Notes: generated from the sequence alone by a model not told the origin. 64,000 nt of DNA from Candidatus Latescibacterota bacterium (GCA_965237675.1 OZ250150.1:4576001-4640000); one strand, 5' to 3'; positions 9,171 to 24,944 are shown, counted from the stretch's first letter. Numbers and translations: made by a program.

Positions 9171-9391
9171 AGGGAAGAGGGTAGACGGAAGAGATAAGCC
9201 ATTTTGGTAACTTTTCCGTATCAATCGTCGGCTAATGGGCGCTCGTTGTGCGAAATTTCGCAATTGCTTAAAACCTGGGTCTGCTCGTCCTTTCGTTTAG
9301 GAGAGGGGGTCGGGGGAGAGGTTCTCGTGAGCGAGACTGGTGAGGTCTGGTGTCGCGCTGTCACTTATTCCGTCACACCATTTACAGCTTT

Positions 9392-9720
9392 ATGGAACTG
9401 CGTTCCGGGCGGACACAGGCATTACCGCTCTCACCAACTTTATTTTTCTCTTCGTCCTTTTTCTTATTCGCATAAGAAAAAGGACGAAAAAGAATCGCGC
9501 CGCTCGGCGCGGGGCCGGTTTTTCCGTGAACCACCTCAGGGCCGTAAATGGGAATTGGGTGGCCTAAGAGCGCCTCAGGCGTGCCCATACAGCGGCGATG
9601 GACGGATTACCACGGAAAAACCCCCAACGCCACCACCGGACGGACGTGAGGGTGAACCCGAAGGACCGCCGTATGGATTTGCGGTCGTACCGCCGATCGA
9701 TGCATGCTTTGTCCCGCGCC
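9392..9720 (+). other. Structured non-coding element, copy A
   Basis: Colinear conserved blocks with 24610-24944 (-), including a 21/21 identical ATGGAACTGCGTTCCGGGCGG and covarying stems. Confidence 0.7.
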
Positions 9721-9732
9721 ACGTTTGAGTTT

Positions 9733-9757
9733 GTAGGGGCAACCCTTGTGGTTGCCC
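9733..9757 (+). repeat. GTAG-family REP
   Basis: GTAG followed by the palindrome GGGCAACC-CTTGT-GGTTGCCC. Confidence 0.75.
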
Positions 9758-9864
9758 GCATTTCGGCGCTGAAGTTGATTGTCTGGTTTTTTTTAATAGC
9801 TGACGGCTGATGGCTGCTCGTATTAAGGAAGCCATGACGGCTATTAACACGATTCCTCTCCAGA

Positions 9865-10034
9865 GCGCTCCCAAAGCAGAGCGTGTGGTTCCGTCCAGCG
9901 CCGGAGCCGATGTTCCTCCTCGGCTCGCAGGGCAGAAAATCCTGTGCATCCCATGAGGCAATTCGCGCTGTGCATATAGCAGGCCCCGCGCCTAGCGGCG
10001 ACCTTTGGTTCCTTTTGGTCGCTTCAAAAGGAAC
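9865..10034 (-). other. Structured non-coding element, diverged copy C (inverted relative to A)
   Basis: Hairpin GTTCCTTTTG..CAAAAGGAAC, then CGCCGCTAGGCGCGGGGCC (18/19 with copy A), then GCTGGACGGA block. Confidence 0.55.
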
Positions 10035-10280
10035 GCGCCGCAGGCAGGGAATTTGGGGAGATGTGGGTTTTGAAATTGGCTTTCGGTTTTTGCTTCAAGC
10101 TGATAGCTTACGGCTGAAAGCTGATAGCTCTTTCCGAGGGGGCCGGGGGTAGAGGTCGCCGTGAGCGCCAAGCCGGTGGGGTGGTGCGGTGTGGTCCTCT
10201 CCCTTCTCCCGTCTCACGTCTCCCGGCCTTTAGCTGATGGCTGATTGCTTTTGTCACCCGCGCCAACCGGAGAAACTCCC

Positions 10281-10988
10281 ATGTCACTCACACCCGAGCA
10301 GGTACACCTGTTTCGCCACAACGGCTTCCTCAAATTGGAAAACCGGCTTCCGGGGGAACAGGTTGAAAAGCTCAAGAAGACGATCTTGAGGAACTTCCGC
10401 GAAGAGGTGCAACCGGTCGTGCGTGACAGGGAAGGACGTGTCGTGCGCATCTCGGACGTCGTGGGCAGAGACCCCGTTTTCCTCGAAACCGCCTCCAGCC
10501 CCCTGGTCCTGGATCCCCTAGAATCCCTTCTGGGCCCCAACATAGAACTCATCAAAAACCGGCACAACCACGCCACGCTCCGCCTGGCCTCGGAGAACCG
10601 GCCGGAGGGGTTGCACCGGGACGTCCGGCAGTGGTCACGGACCATCTTCACCGTTATCTTCTACCTGCAGGAAACAACGGTGGAAAACGGATGCACCCTG
10701 GTCGTGCCCGGCTCACACCATTTTCCGGGCGTCAAAGGCCGTCTCTACGCCGACGCATCGACTCGAACTCTCCTGGGCCAGGCCCTGCCCGTGCCCATGC
10801 CCGAAGGCGGCATGCTCGTAATCGACAGCATGATTATGCACGGCGTTGGACAGAATCAAACGGACGGCACCCGGATGAGTATGACCGTGGGTTACCACAG
10901 CGTGGACGAAATCGCCGACTTGGAGAATCCCCACCGGATGTTGGTGCGCGGCGAACGACCCTACGACGGCAACGTACCCCGGAAGTAG
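10281..10988 (+). CDS. Phytanoyl-CoA dioxygenase (PhyH) family 2OG-Fe(II) oxygenase
   Basis: F..NGFL, LHRD, ENGCTLVVPGSHH, distal HG and NQTDGTR. Confidence 0.9.
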   Translation: MSLTPEQVHLFRHNGFLKLENRLPGEQVEKLKKTILRNFREEVQPVVRDREGRVVRISDVVGRDPVFLETASSPLVLDPLESLLGPNIELIKNRHNHATLRLASENRPEGLHRDVRQWSRTIFTVIFYLQETTVENGCTLVVPGSHHFPGVKGRLYADASTRTLLGQALPVPMPEGGMLVIDSMIMHGVGQNQTDGTRMSMTVGYHSVDEIADLENPHRMLVRGERPYDGNVPRK

Positions 10989-11193
10989 TGCTCTGTCCCA
11001 AAAATATCTAACCATTCGGCCGCCGATTCAACCCGTCTCGCAGCGTTGGTGTCCGTTGAGCTTGTCGAAAAGCGCTCGCCGACCTTACGCAGGTAGCCTG
11101 CGCTCAGGCGCCGGTTCCTGAGCCTGTCGAAGGATGCCAGCCGGGCGACTCGTCGGCCGAATTTAGGCAACCTATTTCCGAGACAGAACACTA
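10986..11193. mobile_element. IS630-type MITE carrying hairpin repeats
   Basis: TIRs TAGTGCTCTGTCCCAAAAATA / TATTTCCGAGACAGAACACTA; left end coincides with the TAG stop of the PhyH gene. Confidence 0.7.
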
Positions 11194-11670
11194 GCGTCCC
11201 GTCCTTCTATATTGTTCCAGCAAGCCGGCAATTTGATCGCTAATCGATCACGGTTGGAATAATTCTTATGTTCCCAATGTTTACCCGCCGGTTGCGCCAA
11301 TTCAAGGTGTGGATTGCGATTGGCCCGGGCATTGTGTATCTTGCACCAGGGTATGTAACAACACTTTATCGGATTTCAAGTGGTTTTTTGCGAAAGACCG
11401 AATAACCGTCGGGATACTGGCTGATCCACTCCTGTCGCGGGCGTCGCGGAAACCGAATCCCGAGGCAGCACGCCGCACGCTGTCTGCCCACAGGTATTCA
11501 GATCTTCCCGCGATACGACAGCAGAATCCTGCCAATGTCGATCGAACAACCGATGTCCGGAACTGAGTTGCCACAATTCAGTGGAAATAATTGCAAGATC
11601 TACCCAGCGCAGAATCGTCTCGACGCCGGGTTCAATTGCATTGGCCATTAGTGCAGGGAATGCTCAGTGT

Positions 11671-12009
11671 ATGAATGCGAAAGTTCCAAGAATAACAGAA
11701 CCGCTTTTGGATGAGATCGCAAGAAAAATCATCGATCACTTTAATCCAGATAAAATCATCCTCTTTGGCTCCCATGCTCATGGTGCGCCGAGGAACGATA
11801 GCGATTTGGATCTGCTTGTCATTATGGATACCGAAATGCGTCCGGCAGCGCGAAGTGCCGCGGTTGCTCGCATATGTCGTCCCAAATATGTCGCGATGGA
11901 TATCGTCGTGCGTACACCGGAAGAGATTCATACCCGCTTGCGAAACTTTGATCCATTTCTCGAGGGAATCTTCAAACTTGGACGCACCCTCTACGAATCA
12001 GCCGGGTGA
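11671..12009 (+). CDS. Minimal nucleotidyltransferase (MNT) antitoxin
   Basis: IILFGSHAHG....SDLDLLVI motif; overlaps the HEPN frame. Confidence 0.9.
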   Translation: MNAKVPRITEPLLDEIARKIIDHFNPDKIILFGSHAHGAPRNDSDLDLLVIMDTEMRPAARSAAVARICRPKYVAMDIVVRTPEEIHTRLRNFDPFLEGIFKLGRTLYESAG

Positions 12010-12394
12010 TATACAAGCGTGGGTCTACAAGGCGGAAGAAGACTTTCGCACAGGCACAACGATGGCTCGGAAACGCAGAGAACCTGTTCCCGACAATGTA
12101 TGTTTCTGCGCGCATCAGTGTATTGAAAAGTACCTCAAAGCTTTTCTGGTTTTTCATCGCGTTCATTTTCCGAAAATTCACGATCTTCTGGCACTGTTGG
12201 ATTTCGCTGTGGATATCGATGCCGATCTCGAGATACTGCGTCGTGACCTGAATTTCCTGTACCCATTTGCCGTTGAATTTCGCTATCCCGGGGAAAACGC
12301 CACTGTCGAAGAATCAAAAAAGGCAGCAAGGGTAATGCGGCGCCCGGCGCACTCTGAGGGCGAAGCTGAACCTGGCAGATGTGTGATATCCTGA
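11993..12394 (+). pseudogene. HEPN domain protein; expected start reads ACG, probable C-terminal frameshift
   Basis: WVYKAEED, CFCAHQCIEKYLKAFL, FPKIHDL and FRYPG; ACG at 11993 where an overlapping ATG is expected. Confidence 0.75.
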
Positions 12395-12411
12395 ACGGAG
12401 GTGTTTCCAAA

Positions 12412-12819
12412 TTACTGGGCCCCAACGCCGCCGTTGAGGTCGTCGGCTTCCACCGTCACCGAATTGCTGACTCTCGTCTCGTAGTCGTAGGCCTCCCCCG
12501 CCCTGGTCCGAAGCTGACCGTTGCTTGCGTCGATGGCGAAGGAACCGGCATCGTTCCCGCTAAGACGGTAGGTCAGTTGGTCACGGTCGGCGTCGGTGGC
12601 GCTGACCGAGTGCTATATATTTTGATCGGGCGCCGTACTCTCGGCCACGCTGCGTGACGTGCTCGGTGCGTCGTTGAAGACAGGCGCCTGATTGGGACCC
12701 GGCGGTGGTGGGGGCCGTCGTGGCGGTGTGGGCGGACGACGAGGAGGTCGTAGCGGAGGAGGACCTGACGGCGGCGGACGCGGCGGAGGGACGACCCGAA
12801 TTGGATTCCTGCGGAACAA
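12412..12819 (-). pseudogene. Pro-rich linker + cadherin-like domain fragment
   Basis: NQAPVF..RSVAES..NI*HSVSATDADRDQLTYRLSGNDAGSFAIDASNGQLRT..YDYET with an internal TAG. Confidence 0.75.
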
Positions 12820-12940
12820 AGGATGTGAATGGCATTGTCCCCCGATGTCGCGTTGGGAGTTGCGATGAGAGATGCAGACGCAACACTATTCGTGAATCTA
12901 ATTCCCAATTCAAAGCAGTCAGCGAACTGGGTGGATCATT

Positions 12941-13834
12941 TCAACGAAATCTGCGCAAGGCGTAGCAGGATGATCGCGGGTGCCTCGGAGAAATGGGTAT
13001 GTGCGGCTTCGCAGAAGGCATGGCCGATGGATTAGTGAACCGCTGCAGGCATTTCCAAGACTGGTTCGTGAGAGGCACGTTCGCGGTACCCGGCGCCCGG
13101 TTGACTGTATCGCCGAAGCTTCTCGCAAAGGTCACGAAATCGTCGAATCCGATGCCACCGTCCCCGTTCAAGTCGTATTTCGCCTCGTACTTTTCTTCGC
13201 CCTCTCGATGCCCGAACGCGCGGGCAAACAGCACGAAGTCCGCAAAACCAACGAGCCCGCTCCCGTCAAAGTCCGCGGACGGAAGTGCGGCAAGCTGCAG
13301 GGCGACACCGAGCGCCGGGGTCAAGACCTCGGTCCGTCCGCCCCTGGACAGTTCAGCGCGCAGCAGCCGGATCTCCGTTTCCGAAAACGCTTCGGATGCG
13401 CGAAAACGCACCGTGCCGACCAGGCCCGTGTTCATGGTTGCCGATCCGCTCAACGCAGCGACGTCGATCCTGACAGACGTGGAATCCTGCATCACAGGCA
13501 CATGGGCGCCGGGCAGCACGTCGCCAGCGACGAATCCCTCGTAGACCAGCTGGGCGGCCTCATATCCGAAGCGCACGGAAATACTGTTCGCGCCTTTTGT
13601 ATCCGAGCCGAAGAATTGAATGGTGACAGGCCCATCGGCAGGAACGTCGAGGGAAGACAGGGCCTGATCGCCGTCGGATTCGTCCAGGTCCAGAGCGAGG
13701 GAAAAAGCGCCGGGTTGCGAGGATGGCGACAACGGGAAAATGAATAGTGCCACGCACACCAGGCACACGGTGCCGAAGGCGAGGGGGAATCTAATAGAGG
13801 AAAGTATCATCATCCAAAATTGGTTTGGAGTCAA
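12941..13834 (-). pseudogene. Secreted protein N-terminus: cohesin-like + EF-hand/dockerin-like repeats, truncated
   Basis: Hydrophobic leader; ADFDGSGLVGFADF and YDLNGDGGIGFDDF Ca-binding loops; breaks just after VNRAP. Confidence 0.7.
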
Positions 13835-14117
13835 CTTACGGGTCCATAACAGGATACCTGGTCAGGTTGGCGAGCAAAACGAGCTTGCGAGCGTCAAAAT
13901 CGACAATCACTCTTCGGGAGACAGCCACCACGCCTGCGAAAAGGAAGATCTAACCATGACGTCCTGTGGAGCTATCACAATTGAAACTCCATGAGCGGAC
14001 TTTCTCCTGAAGACAATCTTTTTGAGCGCAAGCCGGATGTTTGACCGCTGACCGTTACATCGGCTTGTCGCGCTTCCTCCGGGAGCGATGGGATTGGCCG
14101 TCGCCGGACGCCGAAGT

Positions 14118-15128
14118 TCAGTTAGCTATGAGTTCTCTTACGATCCTTCCGGTTTTTCCGGTGAGCCTTCCGATTTGGATCTGAATGACGCCCTCATCGT
14201 CCACGTACCGTGTCTCCACCATCACCGGGGCGGAAACGTGCAGGGCGAGAGGATTCGTAACTTCCACAATGCGATCGAATGGCTGGTTATTCCCGTCAAC
14301 CTGGAAATTTGAAAAGGAAACGGTGAAACCAGGGACATCCCTTGCGGAAATGGTCCCGCCGTGGCCATAAATCTCAATGAATATCGTATTCAGTGCGCGC
14401 AATGAGAGCGTTCTTCCAGGAAATGCAAGTGCGCCGACGACGGTCGTTTCATCCGTACTCAGATCAGTCGCTTCCATACGTACCCAGGTATGCACATAAC
14501 GTCCCCAGCTGTACGCGACATCATCGGCAGTATAGTTCGCGGGAAGCGGCGCTCCCTCCACAACGTCCGACTTGACCAGACAGAGGCGATAGGAACCCTT
14601 CGTCCATCTGAAGTCGTTGCGCACGCTGATGAAGTCTCCCTCGTAACCCGCGCTCCTGATAAGGCCGCCCGGCGCCTGCCGGATCGCATCCGGATCCCGC
14701 TCTTCCCATCGAGAGAAAATCGCGCCCCGGTTCCTTCTAACGAAGGATATTCGGGCCTGGTCACGGTCTGGATAGCCGTCGATTCGCGTCTGTATGCCTC
14801 CGTAGCAGCGTATGCGGTTGATCCGCTGGTTAAACGGGGATATATACACGTTGATATCGTCGGCCACGTTCCCCGTGATGCTGAACGTGGCACAATAGGA
14901 CTGAATGTCGTTCGGTTCATTCGTGGCGTACAAGTGCACGTTCACCAGGTGCCAGGGCGTATGTATCCGCGTATCCGGCGGAAGGTCAACGGGTTCGGAT
15001 TCCGTCCCGCGTTCGCCGTCACAGCCCCACATGAGACTTGTCGAAAGTGCAACCACGAAAGTGAAGCGTTGTCCCACCACGACAGATGCAAAACGCATAA
15101 GAGTGCGGTATGAAAGATGGTGTCTCAT
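14118..15128 (-). CDS. Putative lipoprotein (possibly DUF3472-like)
   Basis: Lipobox-like LMWGC; GGIQT, AIFSRW and YEGDFISVR motifs. Confidence 0.55.
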   Translation of the reverse strand: MRHHLSYRTLMRFASVVVGQRFTFVVALSTSLMWGCDGERGTESEPVDLPPDTRIHTPWHLVNVHLYATNEPNDIQSYCATFSITGNVADDINVYISPFNQRINRIRCYGGIQTRIDGYPDRDQARISFVRRNRGAIFSRWEERDPDAIRQAPGGLIRSAGYEGDFISVRNDFRWTKGSYRLCLVKSDVVEGAPLPANYTADDVAYSWGRYVHTWVRMEATDLSTDETTVVGALAFPGRTLSLRALNTIFIEIYGHGGTISARDVPGFTVSFSNFQVDGNNQPFDRIVEVTNPLALHVSAPVMVETRYVDDEGVIQIQIGRLTGKTGRIVRELIAN

Positions 15129-15275
15129 AAGATCAAACCACCACCGAAAAACCGGCGGAAAAGCGCCTGGGAATGTGGCTTTCGGTACTTAATCGTGGCG
15201 GACAGAGAATCGCCAGCATTGGACTAAGCCATTGCTGGCGTATTCGCTATCAGATGGACTGCCGAGCCACCGGAC

Positions 15276-16040
15276 TCAGGTCTTTCTGCCTGCGATCAAC
15301 AGCTTTTGGGGCAGCCCCTGCAGCGGTGCCCCCTCCCACTCCTCGGCCTTATCCCCGATCTCCTCGAACCTGATCAGGTCAATGCCCTGTTCGATGACCG
15401 CGTTGAGATACTCTGAAACCGTCCAGTGGAATTCATACTGCACCATGTCATCCGGCGCTTCAGCGCGGATGTCCTCGGCGACCTCGTATTCATGCGGACC
15501 GTTGTCGAGGTAGCTGTGCCCGAGGTCCAGCGATCCGTTCGAATCCTTCCAGATCCTTCGGAACGGATGGTACTCGTTGATGAGAAACATACCTCCAGTT
15601 CGTAGAATACGGACAGCTTCACGGTAATAGGTTCGCAGATCACTGACCCACACGGCCACGTGGCCGCCCGTGTAAACGATGTCAAAGCCGTCGCTCTTCA
15701 GGCAACTCAGATCGGTGATGTCGGTTTCCACGAATTCCATACTGAGATCCAGTTCATCGGCGCGTTTCCGCGCGACCTCCAACTGTTCGGCTGAAATATC
15801 CACTGAGGTGACCCGCGCGCCCATTCCCGCGAAAGCGAATACCGCGAGGTTGTCGCCACTGCCCAAAACACAGACGTCCCGGCCTTCCACGGATCCGATC
15901 AGATCCAGTTCCTGCCGGAGGAAGACTTGCTCCGGCTGCCGGTGGGCAATACGCCACGTGCCGCGTCTATCGTGGCTTGCCGCCCACTCGGCCGCGCCCA
16001 GGTTCCAGCGGTCCCTGTTCGCGCGGTGATATTTGTTCAT
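15276..16040 (-). CDS. Class I SAM-dependent methyltransferase
   Basis: VCVLGSGD, VTSVDIS, FDIVY and LRTGG..INEYHPF. Confidence 0.88.
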   Translation of the reverse strand: MNKYHRANRDRWNLGAAEWAASHDRRGTWRIAHRQPEQVFLRQELDLIGSVEGRDVCVLGSGDNLAVFAFAGMGARVTSVDISAEQLEVARKRADELDLSMEFVETDITDLSCLKSDGFDIVYTGGHVAVWVSDLRTYYREAVRILRTGGMFLINEYHPFRRIWKDSNGSLDLGHSYLDNGPHEYEVAEDIRAEAPDDMVQYEFHWTVSEYLNAVIEQGIDLIRFEEIGDKAEEWEGAPLQGLPQKLLIAGRKT

Positions 16041-16125
16041 ATTTCACCTTTCGGCGATAAATCACAATTTACTTCAATTCACGGTTCTACCACGCCGGCC
16101 GCGCTCAGCCGCCGACCCTCCGTAC

Positions 16126-18201
16126 TCATTGCGCGTTGTCCAGGACCGCGACGTAGGCGTCGTACAGGCTCTGGACCTTCTCGACGTAGTGCACGGGCTG
16201 GCCGCCGCGACAGTAGCCGTATCGCGCCCGTTCGTAGTAGGCCGGCTGGGAAAGCAGACGCATCGCCTCTTCCACGTGGCCGAACCAGCGGTTGGGGTCC
16301 CGTCCCATCTCGCGCGCCAGGCGGCGGGCATCCAGCAGATGTCCGTAGCCGACGTTGTAGGATGCCAGGGCAAAGCGAATCCGCGACTGCATGGGGATCT
16401 CCAGATCGAAGCGCCGGATGAGCTGATGCATGTACTTGGTACCGGCGTGAATGCCCTGTTCGGGATCCTCCAGTTCAGTAAATCCGAGTTGCAACCCAGT
16501 TTTCGGCATTACCTGCATCAGGCCCTTTGCGCCCACCCAACTGACGGCGGCGGGATTGAATTTCGATTCCTGGTACATCTGCGCGGTAATCAGGCGCCAG
16601 TCCTGGCCGTACATTCGAGAGTACTTCTTGGCAAGGTCGTCGTACGGCGACAACTGTCCGCTCAAGTCGACCCGCATTGAATCCTTGGCCCTGGCAATGC
16701 CTCGGCTGTTCTCGAAATACCTTTTCTTCATCATGTTAAAGTAAAGACCGCCCTTTTCGCGCCTGATGTACTGGTTGAGCGATGCCAGCAGCGCCGGATT
16801 GCCCTTGCGAACGGCCCAGCCCAAATTCGTGGATTTGATTCCGAAGGCGGCTTTGAGCCGGCGGCCGTACGAGCGTTCCACGTCGAGCAGGTTGGAATCG
16901 GCAAGCGTAAGGTCGTATAGTTCGGATTCCACCCCGGCAAGTATCTCTTCGGTCTCGATGTCATCGGGCAGTTTGACAATCCGGAGGCCTTTCACGGAAT
17001 CCTGCAACGCCGTCAGGGTCGTATAGAAGGAGGAGCTCCCACGCACGTGCAGGGTCCGTCCGGCAAGATCCCGCAAGCTGGAAATCGAATTGTCATCCGC
17101 GCGCACGACCACGACCTCGTCCACTTCGTTATACGGCCTCGTAAAATCCACCTCAGCCTGTCGTTCGGGGGTTATGGTCATCGCCGCCGCCACCACGTCC
17201 CCCTTGCCTTCTTTGAGATGCGACAACAGTTCGGCATGTGATTTCGGGATAACGATCTCCAGGCGCAGGCCCTGTTCCGAGGCGAACTTTTTCATCAGTT
17301 CGTACTCGAAGCCCACCTGCAGGCCCCGGTGAATGAAATAGGTCATCGCGTTGTTGCGCGTGATCATCCGCAAGCGGCCCCGCTCGATCAGCCTCGGGAG
17401 ATCGTCGGTGAATTCGTGTTGCCGCTCGCGAGAAAAGTGCTGGGCCAGGAGGAATTCATCCACTTTGGTTTTCAGCTGCGTATCTCCGGGACGCATCATC
17501 AACCCGAGCGGGCGGTCCACGGCCAGTACGAGCGGCGTTTTCAAATTGTCAAAATAGCGCGACAGGGCTTGCCAAAGATGGGAGTCGGATACGGTGGCCT
17601 CGTATTCGCCCCGGGCGACCCCGTCCAGCAATGCTTCGATGTTCAGCGTTTCCGGGACGCGGCGGATCCGCAGCGACGGAACTTTTTTCTGGAGTTCGAT
17701 AAGGGTCCGGTGGTAGGAACTGGACTTCCGCACGCAAATCTCCATACCAGCGAGGTCCGCGATCGTTTCGGGCGTTTTGCCGCCCGATTTCGTGATCAGG
17801 TATTCGTCTACGTACATATAAGGGACGGAGAAAGCAGCTCGCTCCTGGCGTTCGGGCGTGATGGTCAGGCTGGCCACCACGATGTCGCCGTCGCCCTCGA
17901 GCAACTTTCCCATTATTTTGGAGAAATCTCCGACCTGGACGAGAACCGGGTTCAGATTGAGGGCTTCCGCAAGCTCCCGGGCGATATCGTAGGTGAGCGT
18001 CACCTGTTGCCCGCGTCGGGGCATATACGCGATCGGTTCCAGGGGGACGATCGCCCTGAGCACGCCCCGCGACTGCAACCCGGGAAGGTCGCCGGTATAT
18101 TTGGGAGACGGCTTCCGGGCTTTCTCAGGCTGGCTACACTGTAGAAGAACGCACAGTGCGGCCAGTCCGACGGAAACGTGAACGCTGAATCGGTGCATCA
18201 T
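16126..18201 (-). CDS. mltF: MltF-like lytic transglycosylase with tandem periplasmic-binding domains
   Basis: Two SBP_bac_3-like repeats, then SLT motifs YQESKF, GLMQVMP and ASYNVGYGH. Confidence 0.85.
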   Translation of the reverse strand: MMHRFSVHVSVGLAALCVLLQCSQPEKARKPSPKYTGDLPGLQSRGVLRAIVPLEPIAYMPRRGQQVTLTYDIARELAEALNLNPVLVQVGDFSKIMGKLLEGDGDIVVASLTITPERQERAAFSVPYMYVDEYLITKSGGKTPETIADLAGMEICVRKSSSYHRTLIELQKKVPSLRIRRVPETLNIEALLDGVARGEYEATVSDSHLWQALSRYFDNLKTPLVLAVDRPLGLMMRPGDTQLKTKVDEFLLAQHFSRERQHEFTDDLPRLIERGRLRMITRNNAMTYFIHRGLQVGFEYELMKKFASEQGLRLEIVIPKSHAELLSHLKEGKGDVVAAAMTITPERQAEVDFTRPYNEVDEVVVVRADDNSISSLRDLAGRTLHVRGSSSFYTTLTALQDSVKGLRIVKLPDDIETEEILAGVESELYDLTLADSNLLDVERSYGRRLKAAFGIKSTNLGWAVRKGNPALLASLNQYIRREKGGLYFNMMKKRYFENSRGIARAKDSMRVDLSGQLSPYDDLAKKYSRMYGQDWRLITAQMYQESKFNPAAVSWVGAKGLMQVMPKTGLQLGFTELEDPEQGIHAGTKYMHQLIRRFDLEIPMQSRIRFALASYNVGYGHLLDARRLAREMGRDPNRWFGHVEEAMRLLSQPAYYERARYGYCRGGQPVHYVEKVQSLYDAYVAVLDNAQ

Positions 18202-18369
18202 ACGTAACTCCTGATCCCGGACTATGATTAACTATGATTATAGAGATTGACTGTGATTAAACCGCATGAAGAGACTGTAATTGATGCGATTTTGGTTTTG
18301 ACCTTTAAGGATTGATGGCGAAAGGAAGAGATGACATGTACATCGCTTGGCTGAAGCCACGGATGTGCG

Positions 18370-18550
18370 CCTGCGCCCTGAGCCTGTCGAAGGGTCGGCG
18401 CAGGGTAGCGAAGCGCGGGCATTTCGACAAGCTTGCTTCGACAAGCGCGTTTCGACAGGCTCAACGCAAGCAGCACAGGCAATGACCACGCTTCGGTACG
18501 CGATCTTCCCTCCCCTCCCCCTGCCGGGGAGGGTTCGCCATCCCCTGTGC
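18370..18550. repeat. Nested TGAGCYTGTCGAA hairpins plus a G/C-tract hairpin
   Basis: Homologous to the reverse complement of ~4810-4895; CTCCCC..GGGGAG block shared with 60024-60075. Confidence 0.8.
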
Positions 18551-18568
18551 AACAGCGAACGTCGGTAA

Positions 18569-19211
18569 CTAACCATACATGGACAGATCATCCCAATCCG
18601 CTGTTAATTCCGGGCGGGCCAACGATGCATCGGGGCGCCAGTTCTGCCACCCCTCTGAATAAAGCCCGCCAAGTCCCTCGATTTCCGCAACGGCGCGGTC
18701 TCCCTCTTTCCTCACCGCCCTGCCCTGCCCGGGTGTCATTCGGCCCTGTTTGACGGCAAAGTCGAGTTCATCCCGATCCTTCCACGTCCAGCTTCGGTCC
18801 GGATCTACGACAATATCCAACTGGTGATCCCTGAAATCGAAACCCAGCCGCGTGCGTATCAGTTTGCGTTGAAGGTTTACGTACCACCCATGAAACACGC
18901 CATCGGCCGACCACCGCACCCACGTTGCGCGACAATCGCCGCACCGGACGATGATGAGAAGCTCCGCCCACTGCCAGATCGCATCGGCCAATGCCCGGGA
19001 TCCCTTTACCCAATCCCGTGGTTTGCCGGAGCGATGGGCCGGCAAAACAGGTTTTTTTGGTTGGCGTACCAACGGGAAGCCATAGCACGATTCTTGCATC
19101 GGAATCCTCGACGACGGTCACGGGCTTTACGTCGATGAGTTGATCGTTCTCGTCAAGCTCCCGATAGAGTATGGGTTCCCCACAGAGGAACCTGGATCGC
19201 AACGTCTCCAT
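18569..19211 (-). pseudogene. DUF402 family protein, frameshifted at an A7 run (19052-19058)
   Basis: PVTVVEDS..VLWLPVGTP in one frame; GWYVNLQ, DHQLDIVV and WKDRDEL in the next. Confidence 0.8.
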
Positions 19212-19307
19212 GGTGAGGACTCCGTTGCTTTGACGCCGAATACACGAAATGACGATGAGTCAATCCGGGAATTCCGCTGAACCGTTGACGAAATACCATC
19301 ATTCGAG

Positions 19308-19883
19308 TTAGCCGTTCCCGGCGAACCACTCCGCGTTCGCGTATAACGCCATGACTGACTTGTGTTTCAAAGCATTCAGAAACCTCACCACGTCGGCTCC
19401 CGACCGCAAGATCACGATGTTTTTGTCGTTCCTGACCCGGTCCAGGTCATGCAGTACGCCCGGCAGGCGGGTCCTGTTGTAGTTCCAGATCCATTCCAGG
19501 AATTCCCGGTCGGGCAACTGCTCCCGGCAGCCGGGATTCAGGTCCGCGCGGCTGCGTCCCAGATTAGTGAGCGCTCTCTTGATTACCCTATACAGACAGG
19601 TGAAACGGGACAGCGCCAGCAGGATTACCGTATCGCTGGCGGCGATCCGCTCGCCCATCGTGCCGCCGTAGTTCCCGTCCAGTATCCAGGCCTCACGACT
19701 GAGAAGGTCAGCGTGCCGGCGCTCCCACTCCTCTGGCGGCGGCTTTTCCCAGTTGGGCCTCCAGTGGACGGCATCGAGGTGAATGACCGGCAGATCCAGC
19801 AGAGGTCCAAGTCTGACCGCCAGCGTGGACTTTCCCGCACCCCCGCAACCGATGATGGAAACCTTGCGCATACAGGTGGTCAT
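19308..19883 (-). CDS. P-loop kinase, topology modulation protein (FlaR-like)
   Basis: IIGCGGAGKST, IHLD..HW and WILDGNY. Confidence 0.88.
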   Translation of the reverse strand: MTTCMRKVSIIGCGGAGKSTLAVRLGPLLDLPVIHLDAVHWRPNWEKPPPEEWERRHADLLSREAWILDGNYGGTMGERIAASDTVILLALSRFTCLYRVIKRALTNLGRSRADLNPGCREQLPDREFLEWIWNYNRTRLPGVLHDLDRVRNDKNIVILRSGADVVRFLNALKHKSVMALYANAEWFAGNG

Positions 19884-19922
19884 TTAATCGCCTGTCTGGC
19901 TATAGAACCTGAAACACCGTCG

Positions 19923-20876
19923 TCAGAACCGATATACAAAGTCCACGTACGGTAAACCGGGGAAAAATGCTTCCTCCCCTAACGTGTTGATAAGTGCGAG
20001 GTCTACGCTCAATCGCCTGCCGAAAAACCGCAGCCCCAGCGAGACCACGGGATCGTCCACGCCCGGGAAAATCCAGTTCTCCGTAACCAATGCCGTGTGT
20101 TGACTGAAGCGATGCTCTGCGCCAACCATCACCATGGGACGATCCGCCAGGTCTCCGTCTTTAAACCCGTATCCGAGCCCCGCAGTCAGGCTTGCATCGG
20201 GTTCCCCCAACGTCACCACACCATACAATATGCCCACAACGGCGTCACCACCCGGAACACGTACGAGAAGGGCGCCCGTTGAGAGCTGAAACGTACGCTC
20301 CTGTATCAAACCGATTTTTGGCGCGATGAAGAAGAGTTGCTCGTCTATATCCACGGTGGGAAAGATCGAAAACCCGCCTCCCAGTGTAAAACGGTCGGAT
20401 ATGCCTAGAGAAAACCCTGGAAAAAAGAGATAGTAGACCGAAAAATAACCCGTACCCTTTTCCAGCATACGCGCCTTCGGTGCAAAGAACAGCCGCGATT
20501 CGTTGGGATTTTTGAACCAGATCTCGCCATCGTGTACGGAAGTGGCAGGTAATGTCTCGATGTATTTTATCTTTGAAATGGGGATTCGGATGACGCCCAG
20601 GTCCGTCTCGAATTCGATCTCGTCATCGCCAATCCGCACGATGCGTCCGACATTCGACGAGCCATCCGTTGTCTCGATCACCTGCATCGTGCTGGAATCG
20701 GGAATCACCAACCGGGCCGCCACGGATGCGCTATCAAGTCGCGTATACCCCGGACGACCTTCCGCGAAGGCAGTGCCCACGCCTTCCGGAGAAAACACGG
20801 TCCAGACGGATATCAGCGATAGCCACAGCATCCGTAGGCCAATTGCAGGGATATTGATTCGAGGCTTGTTTTCCAT
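19923..20876 (-). CDS. Hypothetical exported / outer-membrane protein
   Basis: Signal peptide; SRLFFAP followed by amphipathic strands; C-terminal YVDFVYRF. Confidence 0.65.
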   Translation of the reverse strand: MENKPRINIPAIGLRMLWLSLISVWTVFSPEGVGTAFAEGRPGYTRLDSASVAARLVIPDSSTMQVIETTDGSSNVGRIVRIGDDEIEFETDLGVIRIPISKIKYIETLPATSVHDGEIWFKNPNESRLFFAPKARMLEKGTGYFSVYYLFFPGFSLGISDRFTLGGGFSIFPTVDIDEQLFFIAPKIGLIQERTFQLSTGALLVRVPGGDAVVGILYGVVTLGEPDASLTAGLGYGFKDGDLADRPMVMVGAEHRFSQHTALVTENWIFPGVDDPVVSLGLRFFGRRLSVDLALINTLGEEAFFPGLPYVDFVYRF

Positions 20877-20977
20877 GTGATGCCATCCTTTCGAAAATTC
20901 CGGCGCCCGTGGGTCGGGTCGAAATCCGCCAGGGGCTGCAGTGGGAGCGGTCGCGTTGGTATAACTACGGGCGTGCG

Positions 20978-21307
20978 CTACAGGACAAGCGAATCGTAAT
21001 TTGCTCTGAGCCATGTGGTTTCTTCCGAGAGTTGCGCGAGGTCTCCCCGTTCGTAGCAGATGGACCACGGGTGGAGGCCGTTCTTTCCCAGCGTTTCTAT
21101 CCTGTGGTACTCCTCCAACTGGAGGTCGATCAGGGCGTTCAGGATTGCTCTGGTTGTCGTACCATAGGCGCCAGAAACGACGTTCAGTCTGGCCCTGAGA
21201 TCCGGCCTGGCGGAAAATCCGGCTTCTTTCCAGTGGTCTTTACCTCGCAAGGGCACCGCATACCAGGCAAATTGACCGACATCCCGGAGAGGATCACCCG
21301 CCTGCAT
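20978..21307 (-). pseudogene. C-terminal fragment of a phosphotransferase-like protein
   Basis: GDPLRDVGQFAWYAVPL resembles the segment after the APH DWD motif; no N-terminal part. Confidence 0.45.
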
Positions 21308-21438
21308 TTCATTCTGGTCCTAAAAAAGCCGGCCTTACCACATGCCAGCCACCTCAGTGCCCGGGTTCGGCACGACGCTGCACGAGCATTTCGTCAACGC
21401 GATCGATGAATCGACGTCAGCCACGGGGAACGCCTCGA

Positions 21439-21744
21439 CTATCCCCCACCGAGGTGCGGCCGCACTTCCCGGTTCAGACGGTCTGCCAGTTCGTCCTCCG
21501 CCACATCCAGCTCATAGTCCGCCTGAATGTCCATCCAGAATCGGGGCGACATATAGAAGTAACGGGCGAGTCTCAGCGCCGTCTCCGCGGTGATGCCGCG
21601 TTTACCCAGCACAATCTCGTTGATTCGTCGTGGCGGCACCCCGATGGAAAGCGCGAGTTGGTTCTGGCTGAGATTCATCGGCTTGAGAAACCGTTCCAAC
21701 AACACCTTCCCGGGATGAATAGGCGCCAATTCCCGAGCGCACAT
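21439..21744 (-). CDS. higA: HigA family antitoxin
   Basis: PIHPG.VL.E.FLKP, RINEIVLGKRGITAETALRLARYF and FWMDIQADYEL. Confidence 0.93.
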   Translation of the reverse strand: MCARELAPIHPGKVLLERFLKPMNLSQNQLALSIGVPPRRINEIVLGKRGITAETALRLARYFYMSPRFWMDIQADYELDVAEDELADRLNREVRPHLGGG

Positions 21745-21756
21745 CAATCTGACTCC

Positions 21757-22030
21757 ATGGTGATCGTCTGCGATCTAAACGACGCGGGCGCCGCCGGTTC
21801 GACAGGTGAAACCAATACGCCATTGGTCGCTGACGGTCATACCGTACCGGCTCGCACGGTGTCGCCTCGAGGCCGCATTGCGATAGGCTGGCGGAATTCG
21901 AAGCTCGACGCGCGTCGTCGTCGACTATCGATTTGGCGTGCGAAGCCTGCGAACCCCGGCCTGGCCACTCCCGTGTTCGGGTGCGTTGGAAGTTCCGTGG
22001 GTTCGCTCGATCTCCGAAAGATCGCGCCAT
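21757..22030 (-). pseudogene. higB: Degenerate HigB toxin
   Basis: MARSFGD start; after a frameshift ELRIPPAYR...VSDQWRIGF...VV*IADDH matches the HigB pattern DLRxPPGNRL...INDQWRICF...VEIVDYH; TAG at 21775. Confidence 0.75.
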
Positions 22031-22043
22031 ACGAATAGTATAT

Positions 22044-22155
22044 AACGTTTTCCGTTAAATGGAAAGTGTTAAATGAAAACCGTTACATATTAAGCGTTAA
22101 ATGATAACCATTTAATGGAAACCGTTAAACGATAGATGTTAAACGACAAGCGTTA
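22044..22155. promoter_or_regulatory. Tandem array of eight 14-bp palindromic units AAYG-N5-CGTTA (putative HigA operators)
   Basis: Exact 14-bp period; units start at 22044, 22058, 22072, 22086, 22100, 22114, 22128 and 22142; begins 14 bp upstream of the higB start. Confidence 0.75.
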
Positions 22156-22294
22156 TGCCGTACGCAGACGCCATTCTTGACGTACCCTGTCCGCTGGCGA
22201 CGTACACGGTTGCCAACTGAGGAGCGGTTATCAGACGTCCGCACACGCCAGCGACGCCGGGCCAATCATCCCGCCGGAGGTCATGGCGTAAGTC

Positions 22295-22984
22295 TCAGCT
22301 TTGCGTCAGACGAAGCATGTTCGAATCGCCGAGCCGAAACTCGAAAGGCACGGACACGAGTTCGACGTCTACCCACCTCTGCACGGTCTGTATAGTACAG
22401 TCCAGATGCCTCGATGGTTCACCAGCCATGTCGAACAATGGAAATACTCGAACCTCTCGCCCGACCCGAAGCAGTTCACGGAGGAAGGAGAGGTGCGTTT
22501 CCAGGTCGAATTTCTCGGAGTACAGAAACAGCAGATGCGAGCCGAGGACAAGATCGAAGGACTTCGATCGGAAGGGTAACTCGGGCAGGCTCCCCGAAAC
22601 GTAACGACCTCTCCGAGTTACTGATTGAAAATCGCAAAGAAAGGTGTTCAGGATGTCCCGGCGCAGCCGGAGGACCTGTTCGGGGCTTCCATAGTGGTCC
22701 CACAGGAACCGTTCGCGTGCCTTTCGCATTCCCGCGAGCATCCGCCCGGCTGTGGTTTCGAAACTGGCCTTCAGATCCCGGCCGGAAAACCTGTAAATGG
22801 GATCGACGGCGACAACGAATCGCCCCGTTTGGCCCCATTCGGCGGCGAACGAAGACGGTCCGCTGCCACAGTCCAGTACGCGTGCGGACGGCGAGACGTC
22901 GGACAGCGCGAAGAACGCCTCGTATTCGGCCGCGCCTCGGCCCCACGCGGGAACGGTTCCCCCAAAATCGAATTCGCTTGACAT
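22295..22984 (-). CDS. SAM-dependent methyltransferase
   Basis: VLDCGSGPSSF, LPELPF..FDLVLGSHLLFLY and EVRVFPL. Confidence 0.88.
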   Translation of the reverse strand: MSSEFDFGGTVPAWGRGAAEYEAFFALSDVSPSARVLDCGSGPSSFAAEWGQTGRFVVAVDPIYRFSGRDLKASFETTAGRMLAGMRKARERFLWDHYGSPEQVLRLRRDILNTFLCDFQSVTRRGRYVSGSLPELPFRSKSFDLVLGSHLLFLYSEKFDLETHLSFLRELLRVGREVRVFPLFDMAGEPSRHLDCTIQTVQRWVDVELVSVPFEFRLGDSNMLRLTQS

Positions 22985-23206
22985 GAGTCTCCAAATCAGA
23001 ACCAGACACCCGTCGAAGGTGTCTGGTGAGTGTTTGACTACGGTTTATCTCTTATTTTTTCAAAATGTTATAACCAGATCGTCCGGATGCTACCCATCCG
23101 ATGTTCCCGACACGTCTCTTGTTCAGGGCTGGCGCAACGACGGGTCGCGGATGCGCATGCGCCGAAGTCCTAAAAACGGATTTTGGCGCCGGTTACTGTA
23201 TGTAGT

Positions 23207-24184
23207 CTATCGAAACCACGTCCACCCGGCCCTCGTTGCCGGATAGACCAGTTCTTCTCTCAAATGCAGGTTCTTCACTTCCGGATCCTCAACACCGCGG
23301 CGTATGTCGACTGCAAATCGATATAATCTGTTGTCCGGATAGGCCGTCCTCCGGGTTGTGACCTGGGCGGCCGGTGAAAATCCGAGCTTCTCGAGTTCAT
23401 CCATGTAGATCGCCTCAATGCGCTCCACCAGTTCTCGCCTGCCACTGGCCCTGGCGAATCCCTCCCGCAGCAAGGGACAAACCTCAACGGCGATACCTTC
23501 AAGCTTCTTGAACTCTGCCCACAACCACTTGTGATAGGGCGCATATCGCCGATTGACCAGAAAACCAACCTTCATCGCGTACTCAGCGAATCTCGTCCAA
23601 TAGGTAAACGCGGTCACGTGGTCTCCCCGAGCCTCGGCCCTGAAGAGATGCTTCCGCCCCCACTCCGAGCACCAGGACAGGCAGGCCCCCATTCGCTGCC
23701 TCCATACATCCTCCGGATACCTGGAGAACGCTCTGAGGCGGGCACTTACAAAGCCGGGTTTATCGTGAAAGAGCCGGCTCGGAGTCAGTTCGAAAAGATA
23801 TGATTCCGGAATTCGCAACCAATCCTTTGGCGACTCAGGCGGCTCCGGGAATCCAACCACGCTTTTCATGTAGCTGCCGACTTCCACTACACGGCAGGTC
23901 CTCTCGGGTGGATTTTCCCAGTGAAACCCATCGTACTCCTGAGGTAGCGAATCCAGTATTTCCTGCAGACGATCGCCGCAATCGTCGAAGTCCTCCCTGC
24001 CAAGCCATACGGTGAATCCCGGTCCCCAACCGTGGTCGCGCGACACGTCGTCGTCGTTCTTGTGCGCTTGTGATCCGAACTCGACGCCGACGGCCAGTAT
24101 CCGCACACATCCGGGTAATCGTCGCTCAATCGCGGGGAGCCCGATCTCGCGAAAGAACCTCTCCGACAGTTCAAATCCTCTCAC
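23207..24184 (-). CDS. DUF4037 domain protein (nucleotidyltransferase-like)
   Basis: GS....DDDVSRDHGWGPGF, WLRIPE and YAPYHKWL. Confidence 0.8.
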   Translation of the reverse strand: MRGFELSERFFREIGLPAIERRLPGCVRILAVGVEFGSQAHKNDDDVSRDHGWGPGFTVWLGREDFDDCGDRLQEILDSLPQEYDGFHWENPPERTCRVVEVGSYMKSVVGFPEPPESPKDWLRIPESYLFELTPSRLFHDKPGFVSARLRAFSRYPEDVWRQRMGACLSWCSEWGRKHLFRAEARGDHVTAFTYWTRFAEYAMKVGFLVNRRYAPYHKWLWAEFKKLEGIAVEVCPLLREGFARASGRRELVERIEAIYMDELEKLGFSPAAQVTTRRTAYPDNRLYRFAVDIRRGVEDPEVKNLHLREELVYPATRAGWTWFR

Positions 24185-24609
24185 GAATCCTCCACAATAG
24201 GGCGACGTACTTGATGGAAACCGACAACCTGTTGTTTACAAAACCCACGAAGTCTGTTTTCAGCTTGAAGGATAATTTCATCCACTTCGTCACGAATCAA
24301 CCGGTCGGTCTCCATTTGGCTGCCGGGCATGTTTACCCTCAACAGTGATTAAATCTCGAAAGCGCCAGGGGCGAATTAACCAAAGCTCGTATCGTCGCCG
24401 GTATGACAACGGCTGATTCTACTTGCTTCCAGAATCATCGCTAGACCCTCGATTTTTCGCACCCCAATTAATCCTCAGTCACAACGAGACCCCAACGCCT
24501 GCCATATGTCATACCCCTCGCGCGTACGGCTCTGGAGTGGGGGGTTTGTTCGCTGTACGGATCGAACCGCTCACCAGCAACCTCGTACGCCAGAACCAGG
24601 CGTCCCGGG

Positions 24610-24944
24610 ATTCCGCGCTTTATCGTAGAACATCACTATCGTACCGGCACTCGTGCGGTCCCTTCAAGCGCTCGGTGGCGGTTGATGGGGCTTTTCCGCG
24701 CTTTTCCGTTCAGCAACACGCTTCAGTGTTACCCGTTTCGACGGCAGGCCGCCGATCTCTTGTTCTCACCCGGGAAATGATTCGCGGAAAAGGAGCCCCG
24801 CGGCGTCTGAGCGGCGCCCTTCTTTTTCGCCCTTTTTCTTGGGCGAAGCAAGAAAAAGGGCAAGGGAATGGGGGACGTTAACGGGAAGGGGAGACTCTAT
24901 GTCGTTCCGAATTCAATGACCACCCGCCCGGAACGCAGTTCCAT
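24610..24944 (-). other. Structured non-coding element, copy B
   Basis: Blocks colinear with 9392-9720, with compensatory changes. Confidence 0.7.

Follow-up and report, generated by a model that had tools for sequence, protein, structure and literature searches.

A family of structured intergenic repeats with compensated helices in Candidatus Latescibacterota and its predicted terminator-like hairpin

In enterobacteria and pseudomonads, REP elements and their composites, the BIMEs, are multi-copy intergenic hairpins with a palindrome of 20-40 nt; they form mosaics and inverted pairs and have been linked to transcript 3' ends and termination. The ERIC/IRU repeats, the Correia elements of Neisseria and the bcr1 elements of Bacillus cereus are interspersed repeats of 100-160 nt with a predicted RNA structure that lie between genes in either orientation; each kind is limited to one genus or family, has inverted repeats at its ends and duplicates its target site, and copies can function as a terminator, a promoter or an RNA-processing site. 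The HEARO/IscB RNAs, the TnpB omega RNAs and the IS110 bridge RNAs are structured and a few hundred nucleotides long; each genome has numerous copies, and one part of the RNA is variable. Sites of the attC type are defined by an R''/L''-L'/R' architecture and a GTTRRRY core and are found in cassette arrays with the IntI integrase. Here we analyze a structured non-coding element first noticed as three diverged copies (A, B and C) in a 64,000-nt stretch of DNA from a Candidatus Latescibacterota bacterium (GCA_965237675.1, OZ250150.1:4576001-4640000), hereafter called the window. The copies belong to a large family with a three-helix core (P1, P2 and P3), and we favor, at a probability of roughly one half, the reading that it is a new family of non-autonomous structured intergenic repeats of the REP/BIME, ERIC, Correia or bcr1 kind, in which the hairpin P2 would be expected to terminate transcription.

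Like REP and BIME, the element is multi-copy, strictly intergenic, hairpin-forming, mosaic and found in inverted pairs; unlike them, it has a core of ~190 nt in which a long-range helix accompanies two hairpins, it lacks a GTAG head, and Y1 (RAYT-type) transposases do not track it. With ERIC, Correia and bcr1 it shares an interspersed, intergenic, structured character and occurrence in both orientations, but no terminal inverted repeat or target-site duplication was found, and the fold spans several families and classes of the phylum. The A-tract, GC hairpin and T-tract around P2 resemble those of bidirectional intrinsic terminators, whereas here P2 is set between the conserved helices P1 and P3, and the forward U-tract is missing from copies of the type of C and from those of a sister family. 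The element differs from omega and bridge RNAs in having no Rfam match, no TnpB and no recurrent adjacent open reading frame (ORF), although IS110 and IscB genes were not searched for, and from attC, in a comparison made from general knowledge and with no search for IntI or core sites, in its size and its long-range helix.

The preliminary description of the window placed A at 9392-9720 (+), B at 24944-24610 (-) and C at 10034-9865 (-) as series of ordered blocks. These coordinates and blocks hold, including the 21-nt block that starts at 9392 (+) and 24944 (-) and is identical at 21/21 positions. A covariance model made from 44 copies, from other loci and from the window, scored A at 188.3 bits (E = 7e-55), B at 164.4 bits (9e-48) and C at 40.3 bits (8e-11), and found no other copy in the 64-kb window. 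Thus the three copies are real, with scores well outside what chance would give, but their number was not the whole count. In the element's own genome (5.6 Mb, 58% G+C), a BLAST search with A as query gave 67 matches, and iterated nhmmer searches gave 89, 98 and finally 110 non-overlapping loci (E ≤ 1e-5), so that A, B and C belong to a much larger family, with ~100 members per genome. The tally comprises 72 full copies (at least 180 nt and more than 100 bits), 17 C-type copies (model positions ~70-216, below 62 bits) and a remainder of fragments, which are either P1-only pieces or cores without P1; in some copies the P1 part and the core lie ~170 nt apart. The family takes up ~1% of the genome's intergenic space.

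Two hairpins, the AU-rich P1 and the GC-rich P2, stand on either side of an A-tract in the core of ~190 nt and are followed by P3, a long-range helix with a variable domain enclosed between its arms; with its optional 5' and 3' modules the unit measures ~330 nt. In copy A (+), P1 (9454..9485) is a 13-bp AU-rich hairpin with a U-run in its 5' arm and an A-run in its 3' arm. It is followed by an A-rich linker (9486..9495), in which seven A positions are invariant in 44/44 aligned copies, and by P2 (9497..9515), which exists in the family as a short and a long variant that differ by a 4-nt gap. The T-tract after P2 doubles as the 5' arm of P3 (9518..9528), an 11-bp helix whose 3' arm (9611..9621) holds an A-tract and lies ~85 nt away. 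The variable inner domain between the arms (9529..9610) keeps two motifs, GCCCUG/GGCCU (9561-9565) and GGACGGA (9600-9606), and the core ends, together with the covariance-model match, in a C-rich tail (CCCC..CCACCACCG, 9622..9638). The core of copy B (24673..24868, -) has the same order, with P1 at 24861-24829, the A-tract at 24828-24818, a long-variant P2 at 24817-24795, and P3 formed by 24792-24783 with 24700-24691. In the C-type core of copy C (9875..10034, -), P1 is at 10034-10008, P2 at 10000-9983, and P3 pairs 9973-9964 with 9885-9876. Column covariation, summed base-pair probabilities, single-sequence folds and inspection by eye gave no fold of the inner domain that is common to all copies. 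A pseudoknot between CAGUGG-like or GGUGCC-like segments and the C-rich tail fits some copies and not others, and was dropped.

Compensatory changes support all three helices. Two pairs of P1 covary (CG 25/UA 15 and GC 30/UA 9/AU 3), the loop-closing pair of P2 in short-variant copies is CG in 18 and UA in 8, and 4/11 pairs of P3 have double changes within the A-type. Standard pairs occupy 91.9% of the cells in the 44 copies, and sliding the 3' partners by 1-3 columns lowers the figure to 46-66%; double changes are found at 8/30 pairs (61 cells), and 0/500 shuffles, in a procedure that ignores the relatedness of the copies, reach the observed score. RNAalifold independently recovers P1 and P3. 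The four compensatory changes first described between A and B, two in the hairpin and two in the long-range stem, are confirmed, with both sides changed in each; the two hairpin pairs are U-A in one copy versus C-G in the other and A-U versus G-C. For P3, the best evidence is that of the C-type copies. The A-type helix is UUUUUCCGCG/CGCGGAAAAA, while that of the C-type and of the sister family is GCACAGCGCG/CGCGCU(C/G)UGC: the outer six pairs UUUUUC/GAAAAA are replaced by GCACAG/CUCUGC, and the inner CGCG pairs are unchanged. In copy C itself, which, as first described, keeps the block order with a different hairpin, 6/10 pairs of the long-range stem have changed on both sides. The P1 stem, too, has a different yet complementary sequence in the sister family. 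The claim that structure rather than sequence is conserved therefore holds for P1, P2 and P3, and the maintenance of these helices by compensatory change over phylum-level distances indicates that a single-stranded fold is under selection.

With BLAST, the core is found in 14/14 genomes of the same genus, weakly in 2/4 genomes of two sister genera, and in 0/19 of the sister family. The covariance model, a kind of search that had been proposed as a check, is positive in 58/151 sampled Latescibacterota genomes, with 18/18 in family f1, 28/30 in f2, 2/2 in f4, 6/13 in f10, 2/6 in f9, 1/1 in f12 and 0/64 in f3. Copy numbers vary widely, from 2-5 each in five genomes of one genus (g6) of the sister family f2 to at least 17 scored per genome in the window's genus (g1). 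The g6 copies have P1 as CUUCAUUUUUUU/AAAAAAAUGAAG or CCUACUUUUU/AAAAAGUAGG and P3 as GCACAGCGCG/CGCGCUGUGC. In the distant families, which have from 1 to at least 24 copies, P1, the A-linker, a longer P2 and a complementary P3 are kept around an inner domain of only 28-45 nt, and the sequences of P1 and P3 are again different but complementary; the A-rich linker is present in all 6 listed alignments from the sister and distant families. As first suspected, the element corresponds to no known family: Rfam 15 at gathering cut-offs gave zero matches on either strand of the whole 64-kb window, and in E-value mode the best score was 30.4 bits, for Phe_leader, whose cut-off is 55. No match was found in plasmids, phages or IMG/VR viral contigs. 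The titles and abstract openings returned by a full-text literature search describe neither such an element in Latescibacterota nor the non-coding repertoire of this phylum.

Within the genome the family is strictly intergenic. Relative to 3894 genes covering 81% of the sequence, predicted with a crude purpose-made caller, 72/72 full copies lie between genes, overlapping called genes by at most 18 nt, and the host intergenic regions have a median length of 997 nt versus 133 nt genome-wide. The full copies show no orientation bias: in regions flanked by co-directional genes, 28 have the same and 21 the opposite direction, and a further 13 lie in divergent and 10 in convergent regions. Some are arranged in tandem arrays, with three copies inside single intergenic regions of ~3.5 kb. 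These data bear on a possible role as the cis-regulatory leader of a downstream gene, for instance as a riboswitch or an attenuator. The terminator-like hairpin and the alternative pairings of A- and U-tracts, found by scan and by eye, would suit such a role, but the 28 versus 21 orientation counts give no bias toward downstream genes, these genes are unrelated, the copies number ~100 and form arrays, and Rfam has no match, all of which makes a leader most improbable.

Nothing supports a conserved protein in the element, in line with the original statement that none is encoded: ORFs across A and B have no Pfam match, copies differ by indels that are not multiples of three, such as the 4-nt gap between P2 variants, and a short frame opening in the 21-nt block of A and B loses its similarity once 7 codons have passed. 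A conserved neighbouring protein, which had been suggested as something to look for, did not emerge. When every ORF of 90 aa or more lying up to 3 kb from one of the 72 copies was clustered, families were shared only where windows of one array overlapped, and the same procedure around 18 sister-family copies gave no recurrent partner. One 97-aa ORF in a sister-family genome (L145:1713-2006, -) is located directly upstream of a copy, inside a 671-nt stretch with no counterpart in a close relative; it was rejected as a partner, being unique to its locus and not found beside the other 17 sister-family copies. Three weak Y1_Tnp (RAYT-like) ORFs in the genome adjoin neither copies nor REP-like elements. 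Four genes for group II intron reverse transcriptase/maturase (G000:C1:4792236-4793171, 2685049-2685984, 3958089-3960724 and 521151-522083, two of them with a reported internal stop codon) are likewise not beside copies. TnpB, Y1 transposase and the group II enzyme were each rejected as the mobilizer, being absent or not co-varying with the element; an IS200/IS605-derived element or omega RNA was rejected on the lack of TnpB and the non-adjacent weak Y1_Tnp ORFs. For a miniature inverted-repeat transposable element, no autonomous parent with a matching transposase turned up, either as a recurrent neighbour protein or among these enzymes.

Orthologous loci differ in the presence of the element. 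Copy A lies between the genes for a molybdopterin oxidoreductase and a PhyH dioxygenase, in a region that also holds C and is 1111 nt long here and 1116 nt long, with A and C present, in the near-identical genome G012. The same region is 78 nt long and without the element in G010, and seven relatives have a mosaic of other short repeats there, 222-608 nt in length. A lone C-type copy was found in only one other genome among the 69 loci tested, and a 47-nt fragment in one. Copy B, between NUDIX and DUF4037 genes, is kept in G008 (94% identity over 1.8 kb); in G009 a 75%-identical core lies ~750 nt from the matched flank, and other sequence takes the place of the stretch in G012, G002 and G010. 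One sister-family locus is 671 nt long with the element and 96 nt long in a close relative. Filled and empty, or simply different, regions thus exist between species, but the clean empty site that strain comparisons had been expected to provide is not among them, because other inserts occupy the empty sites. Some sister-family copies are orthologous across species, with P1-P2 59-74% identical and flanks ~90% identical; divergence of P1-P2 so far beyond that of the flanks points to an exchange of modules.

Further signs of modularity are found around the core. The 5' module, with the hairpin GGAAC-TGC-GTTCC (9394-9406), occupies 9392..9412 (+) in A and 24924..24944 (-) in B, where the same hairpin lies at 24942-24930. 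By an eye count it is present in ~10 of the 46 listed A-type 5' flanks, which places it outside the core as a module; the B-type 5' flank occurs in 18 copies. The 3' module consists in A of a small hairpin, GACCGC..GCGGTC, followed by GTACCGC (9660..9693, +) and in B of the variant GAAGGGACCGC..GGTAC (24641..24665, -), and belongs to a subset of copies, since many full copies end at model position ~255-262. P1 also occurs alone: at G010:C1:3305533-3326966, four 50-nt pieces that contain the P1 hairpin only, 98% identical to copy B, lie within 21 kb. The facing inverted pair that A and C were first described as forming is a recurrent arrangement, in that 14/17 C-type copies have a full copy no more than 700 nt away, in each case in inverted orientation. 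In the window this composite of A, spacer, inverted C and tail spans 9392..10249 (+), and it recurs in the genome, with ~7-28 same-strand BLAST matches from other extended copies at +300 to +800 downstream of A.

The spacer between A and C contains a REP-like element of another repeat family (9733..9757, +), with a GTAG sequence followed by a palindrome. The genome contains 238 occurrences of the 8-mer GTAGGGGC of these REP-like elements, and in 73 cases a core match is no more than 500 nt away. This close association, the hairpins conserved in structure rather than sequence, and the modules exchanged between copies raise the idea that the fold acts only in single-stranded DNA, as a recognition or recombination signal for an enzyme such as an HUH or a tyrosine recombinase, as on attC or REP, and that transcripts of the copies have no role. 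Mismatches in P1, which are nearly balanced between G.U (9) and A.C (11), would fit neutral decay after insertion. Against this, we know of no single-stranded DNA recombination site with a long-range helix closing a 30-90-nt domain, Y1 (HUH) transposases do not track the family, and no integrase or attC-type R'/R'' sites turned up, although no search for them was made. We consider a fold that works in DNA alone distinctly unlikely. As observations in their own right, the REP-like elements have a GTAG head, a GC-rich palindrome and at least three stem variants.

The direction in which the element might be read was approached from its terminator-like features. In copy A, P2 with its flanking A- and T-tracts has, to judge from the nucleotide pattern, the form of a bidirectional intrinsic terminator. 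A pattern scan flagged P2 and its flanking tracts as terminator-like on both strands in A and on a single strand in B, while two sister-family copies were flagged on the reverse strand alone, where the reverse complement of P2 is followed by U6-7. Only the A-rich linker, which on the reverse strand supplies a U-tract after P2, is seen in every lineage examined. In P3, the wobble cells of this genome are A.C or C.A in 23 cases versus G.U or U.G in 8, and the sister-family totals are 22 versus 10; an A.C cell corresponds to G.U on the reverse strand. Upstream of P1, a TAnAAT box located 33-38 nt away is common to 18 B-type copies, a GATAAT at a similar place was seen by eye in five sister-family copies, and many A-type copies are 78-96% A+T from -18 to -2. 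A scan of four regions for a sigma-70-type consensus found no forward promoter upstream of P1; the sole match, inside one sister-family core, occurs at the rate seen in shuffled sequence. The evidence on the functional strand is in conflict.

The forward strand is the one favored by the principal rival, in which the copies are paralogous small RNA genes, each with its own promoter just upstream of P1; the RNA would end at P2 and the U-tract (~70 nt) or beyond P3 (~200-330 nt), and the inner domain would give each copy its specificity. With P1, then an A-rich linker, then a GC hairpin that has U5 after it, the element takes the usual shape of a bacterial small RNA. The occurrence of the core fold in 58/151 genomes of the phylum, the mere 2-5 copies in the five g6 genomes, some of them orthologous, and the TAnAAT boxes, GATAAT boxes and A+T-rich stretches upstream all fit such genes. 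But no sigma-70-type promoter was found upstream of P1 on the forward strand in the four regions scanned, and the T-rich stretch before P1 can, in a reverse-strand fold and on inspection by eye, pair with the A-rich linker, so that it may be a stem rather than a promoter. A stop at P2 and U5 would preclude P3, yet P3 covaries; the wobble counts of P3 lean to the opposite strand; and ~100 copies with many fragments and nested insertions would be unusual for small RNA genes. Forward small RNA genes thus strike us as a possible but doubtful explanation.

A variant of this idea takes the reverse strand as functional: the RNA would run through the P3-closed domain and end at the reverse complement of P2 and its U-tract, and the A/C pairs would be divergent RNA genes that share a central control region. 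The linker-derived U-tract in every lineage examined, the restriction of the terminator-like form to this strand in the sister family, and the wobble asymmetry point in this direction, as does the inverted arrangement of 14/14 A/C pairs, 10 of which, on a reading of their coordinates, have diverging reverse strands. On the other hand, this would put P1, which covaries and is the best conserved of the helices, past the terminator; the scans recognised no promoter on that side; and the wobble counts are small, come partly from terminal pairs and are drawn from related copies. We therefore regard a functional reverse strand as rather unlikely.

An interspersed repeat is our preferred reading, and the pair of options offered at the outset, a functional RNA or a mobile element that folds as single-stranded DNA, is still the right one. 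The swings in copy number, the fragments, nesting and arrays, the lack of orientation bias and the differences between loci are marks of an interspersed non-autonomous repeat. We infer from them a mobile or recombining element that would have been amplified to ~100 copies in the genus, with a fold that would have to form in a single strand, either a transcript or single-stranded DNA. Where an A-type copy is transcribed from either side, P2 and its A- and U-tracts may act as a bidirectional intrinsic terminator, and a copy would then insulate the neighbouring genes or cap their transcripts; we propose that insertions might for this reason be tolerated or even useful. This goes well beyond the preliminary description, whose interpretation is partly supported but which had seen neither the copy number, the spread over much of the phylum and the mosaic make-up, nor the differences between loci and the terminator form.

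Several observations weigh against this reading of the family as a mobile, terminating repeat. A role in termination leaves P1 and P3 unexplained, and the C-type and sister-family copies have no forward U-tract after P2, so that bidirectional termination is not universal in the family. The most similar dispersed pairs within the genome have 91-97% identity and none is near-identical; the absence of any dispersed pair above ~97% gives no sign of recent jumps. Comparisons of filled and empty sites yielded no clean junction, target-site duplication or precise excision, and flank alignments yielded no terminal inverted repeats. No transposase partner presents itself: the TnpB domain PF07282 has 0 matches in the genome, Y1 transposase is found in 6/14 genomes of g1 and in 19/64 of f3, a family without the element, and group II maturase is found in 0/30 genomes of f2, although 28/30 carry the element, and in 12/64 of f3. 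The covariation counts supporting the helices ignore the relatedness of the copies. Finally, deep conservation and a low copy number in some lineages would also fit a functional RNA gene. A more far-reaching proposal, which we hold to be improbable, is that much of the phylum Latescibacterota has in this family a hitherto undescribed class of structured RNA, transcribed from its own signals, with a constant three-helix scaffold and a hypervariable inner domain. If that were true, each of the ~100 copies would be a distinct regulator or guide with a protein partner, and the family an RNA-based system rather than selfish DNA.

For the metagenome-assembled genomes of Latescibacterota, an uncultured phylum, the covariance model is ready for use in annotation. 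The family explains long, variable intergenic regions and breaks in assemblies; contigs from 4 sequencing runs show peaks of read depth over the repeated modules, as well as repeat-induced joints. It also provides a test case for structured repeats that persist over deep time with no visible transposase. If the copies are terminators or insulators, they would shape operon boundaries genome-wide, and if they are independent RNAs, they would rank among the largest families of RNA genes that a bacterium has.

Other repeats were observed near the copies. Short tandem repeats of the GCTGAYNGCTGA type lie at 9796-9825, 10099-10135 and 10228-10250 in the window, and at the gene-proximal end of the orthologous regions L061-L065 in several species. 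A further type of repeat, with inverted arms rich in GAGACG/CGTCTC and a conserved center, is located at 9290-9380 and 10130-10225 in the window and in L059, L062 and L064; a related pyrimidine-rich segment replaces P1 in several copies of the element, in two of which a leftover part of P1 lies ~170 nt from the core. An ORF with a HEPN domain (Pfam E = 8e-18), missed by the crude gene caller, is located at 11711-12394 (+).

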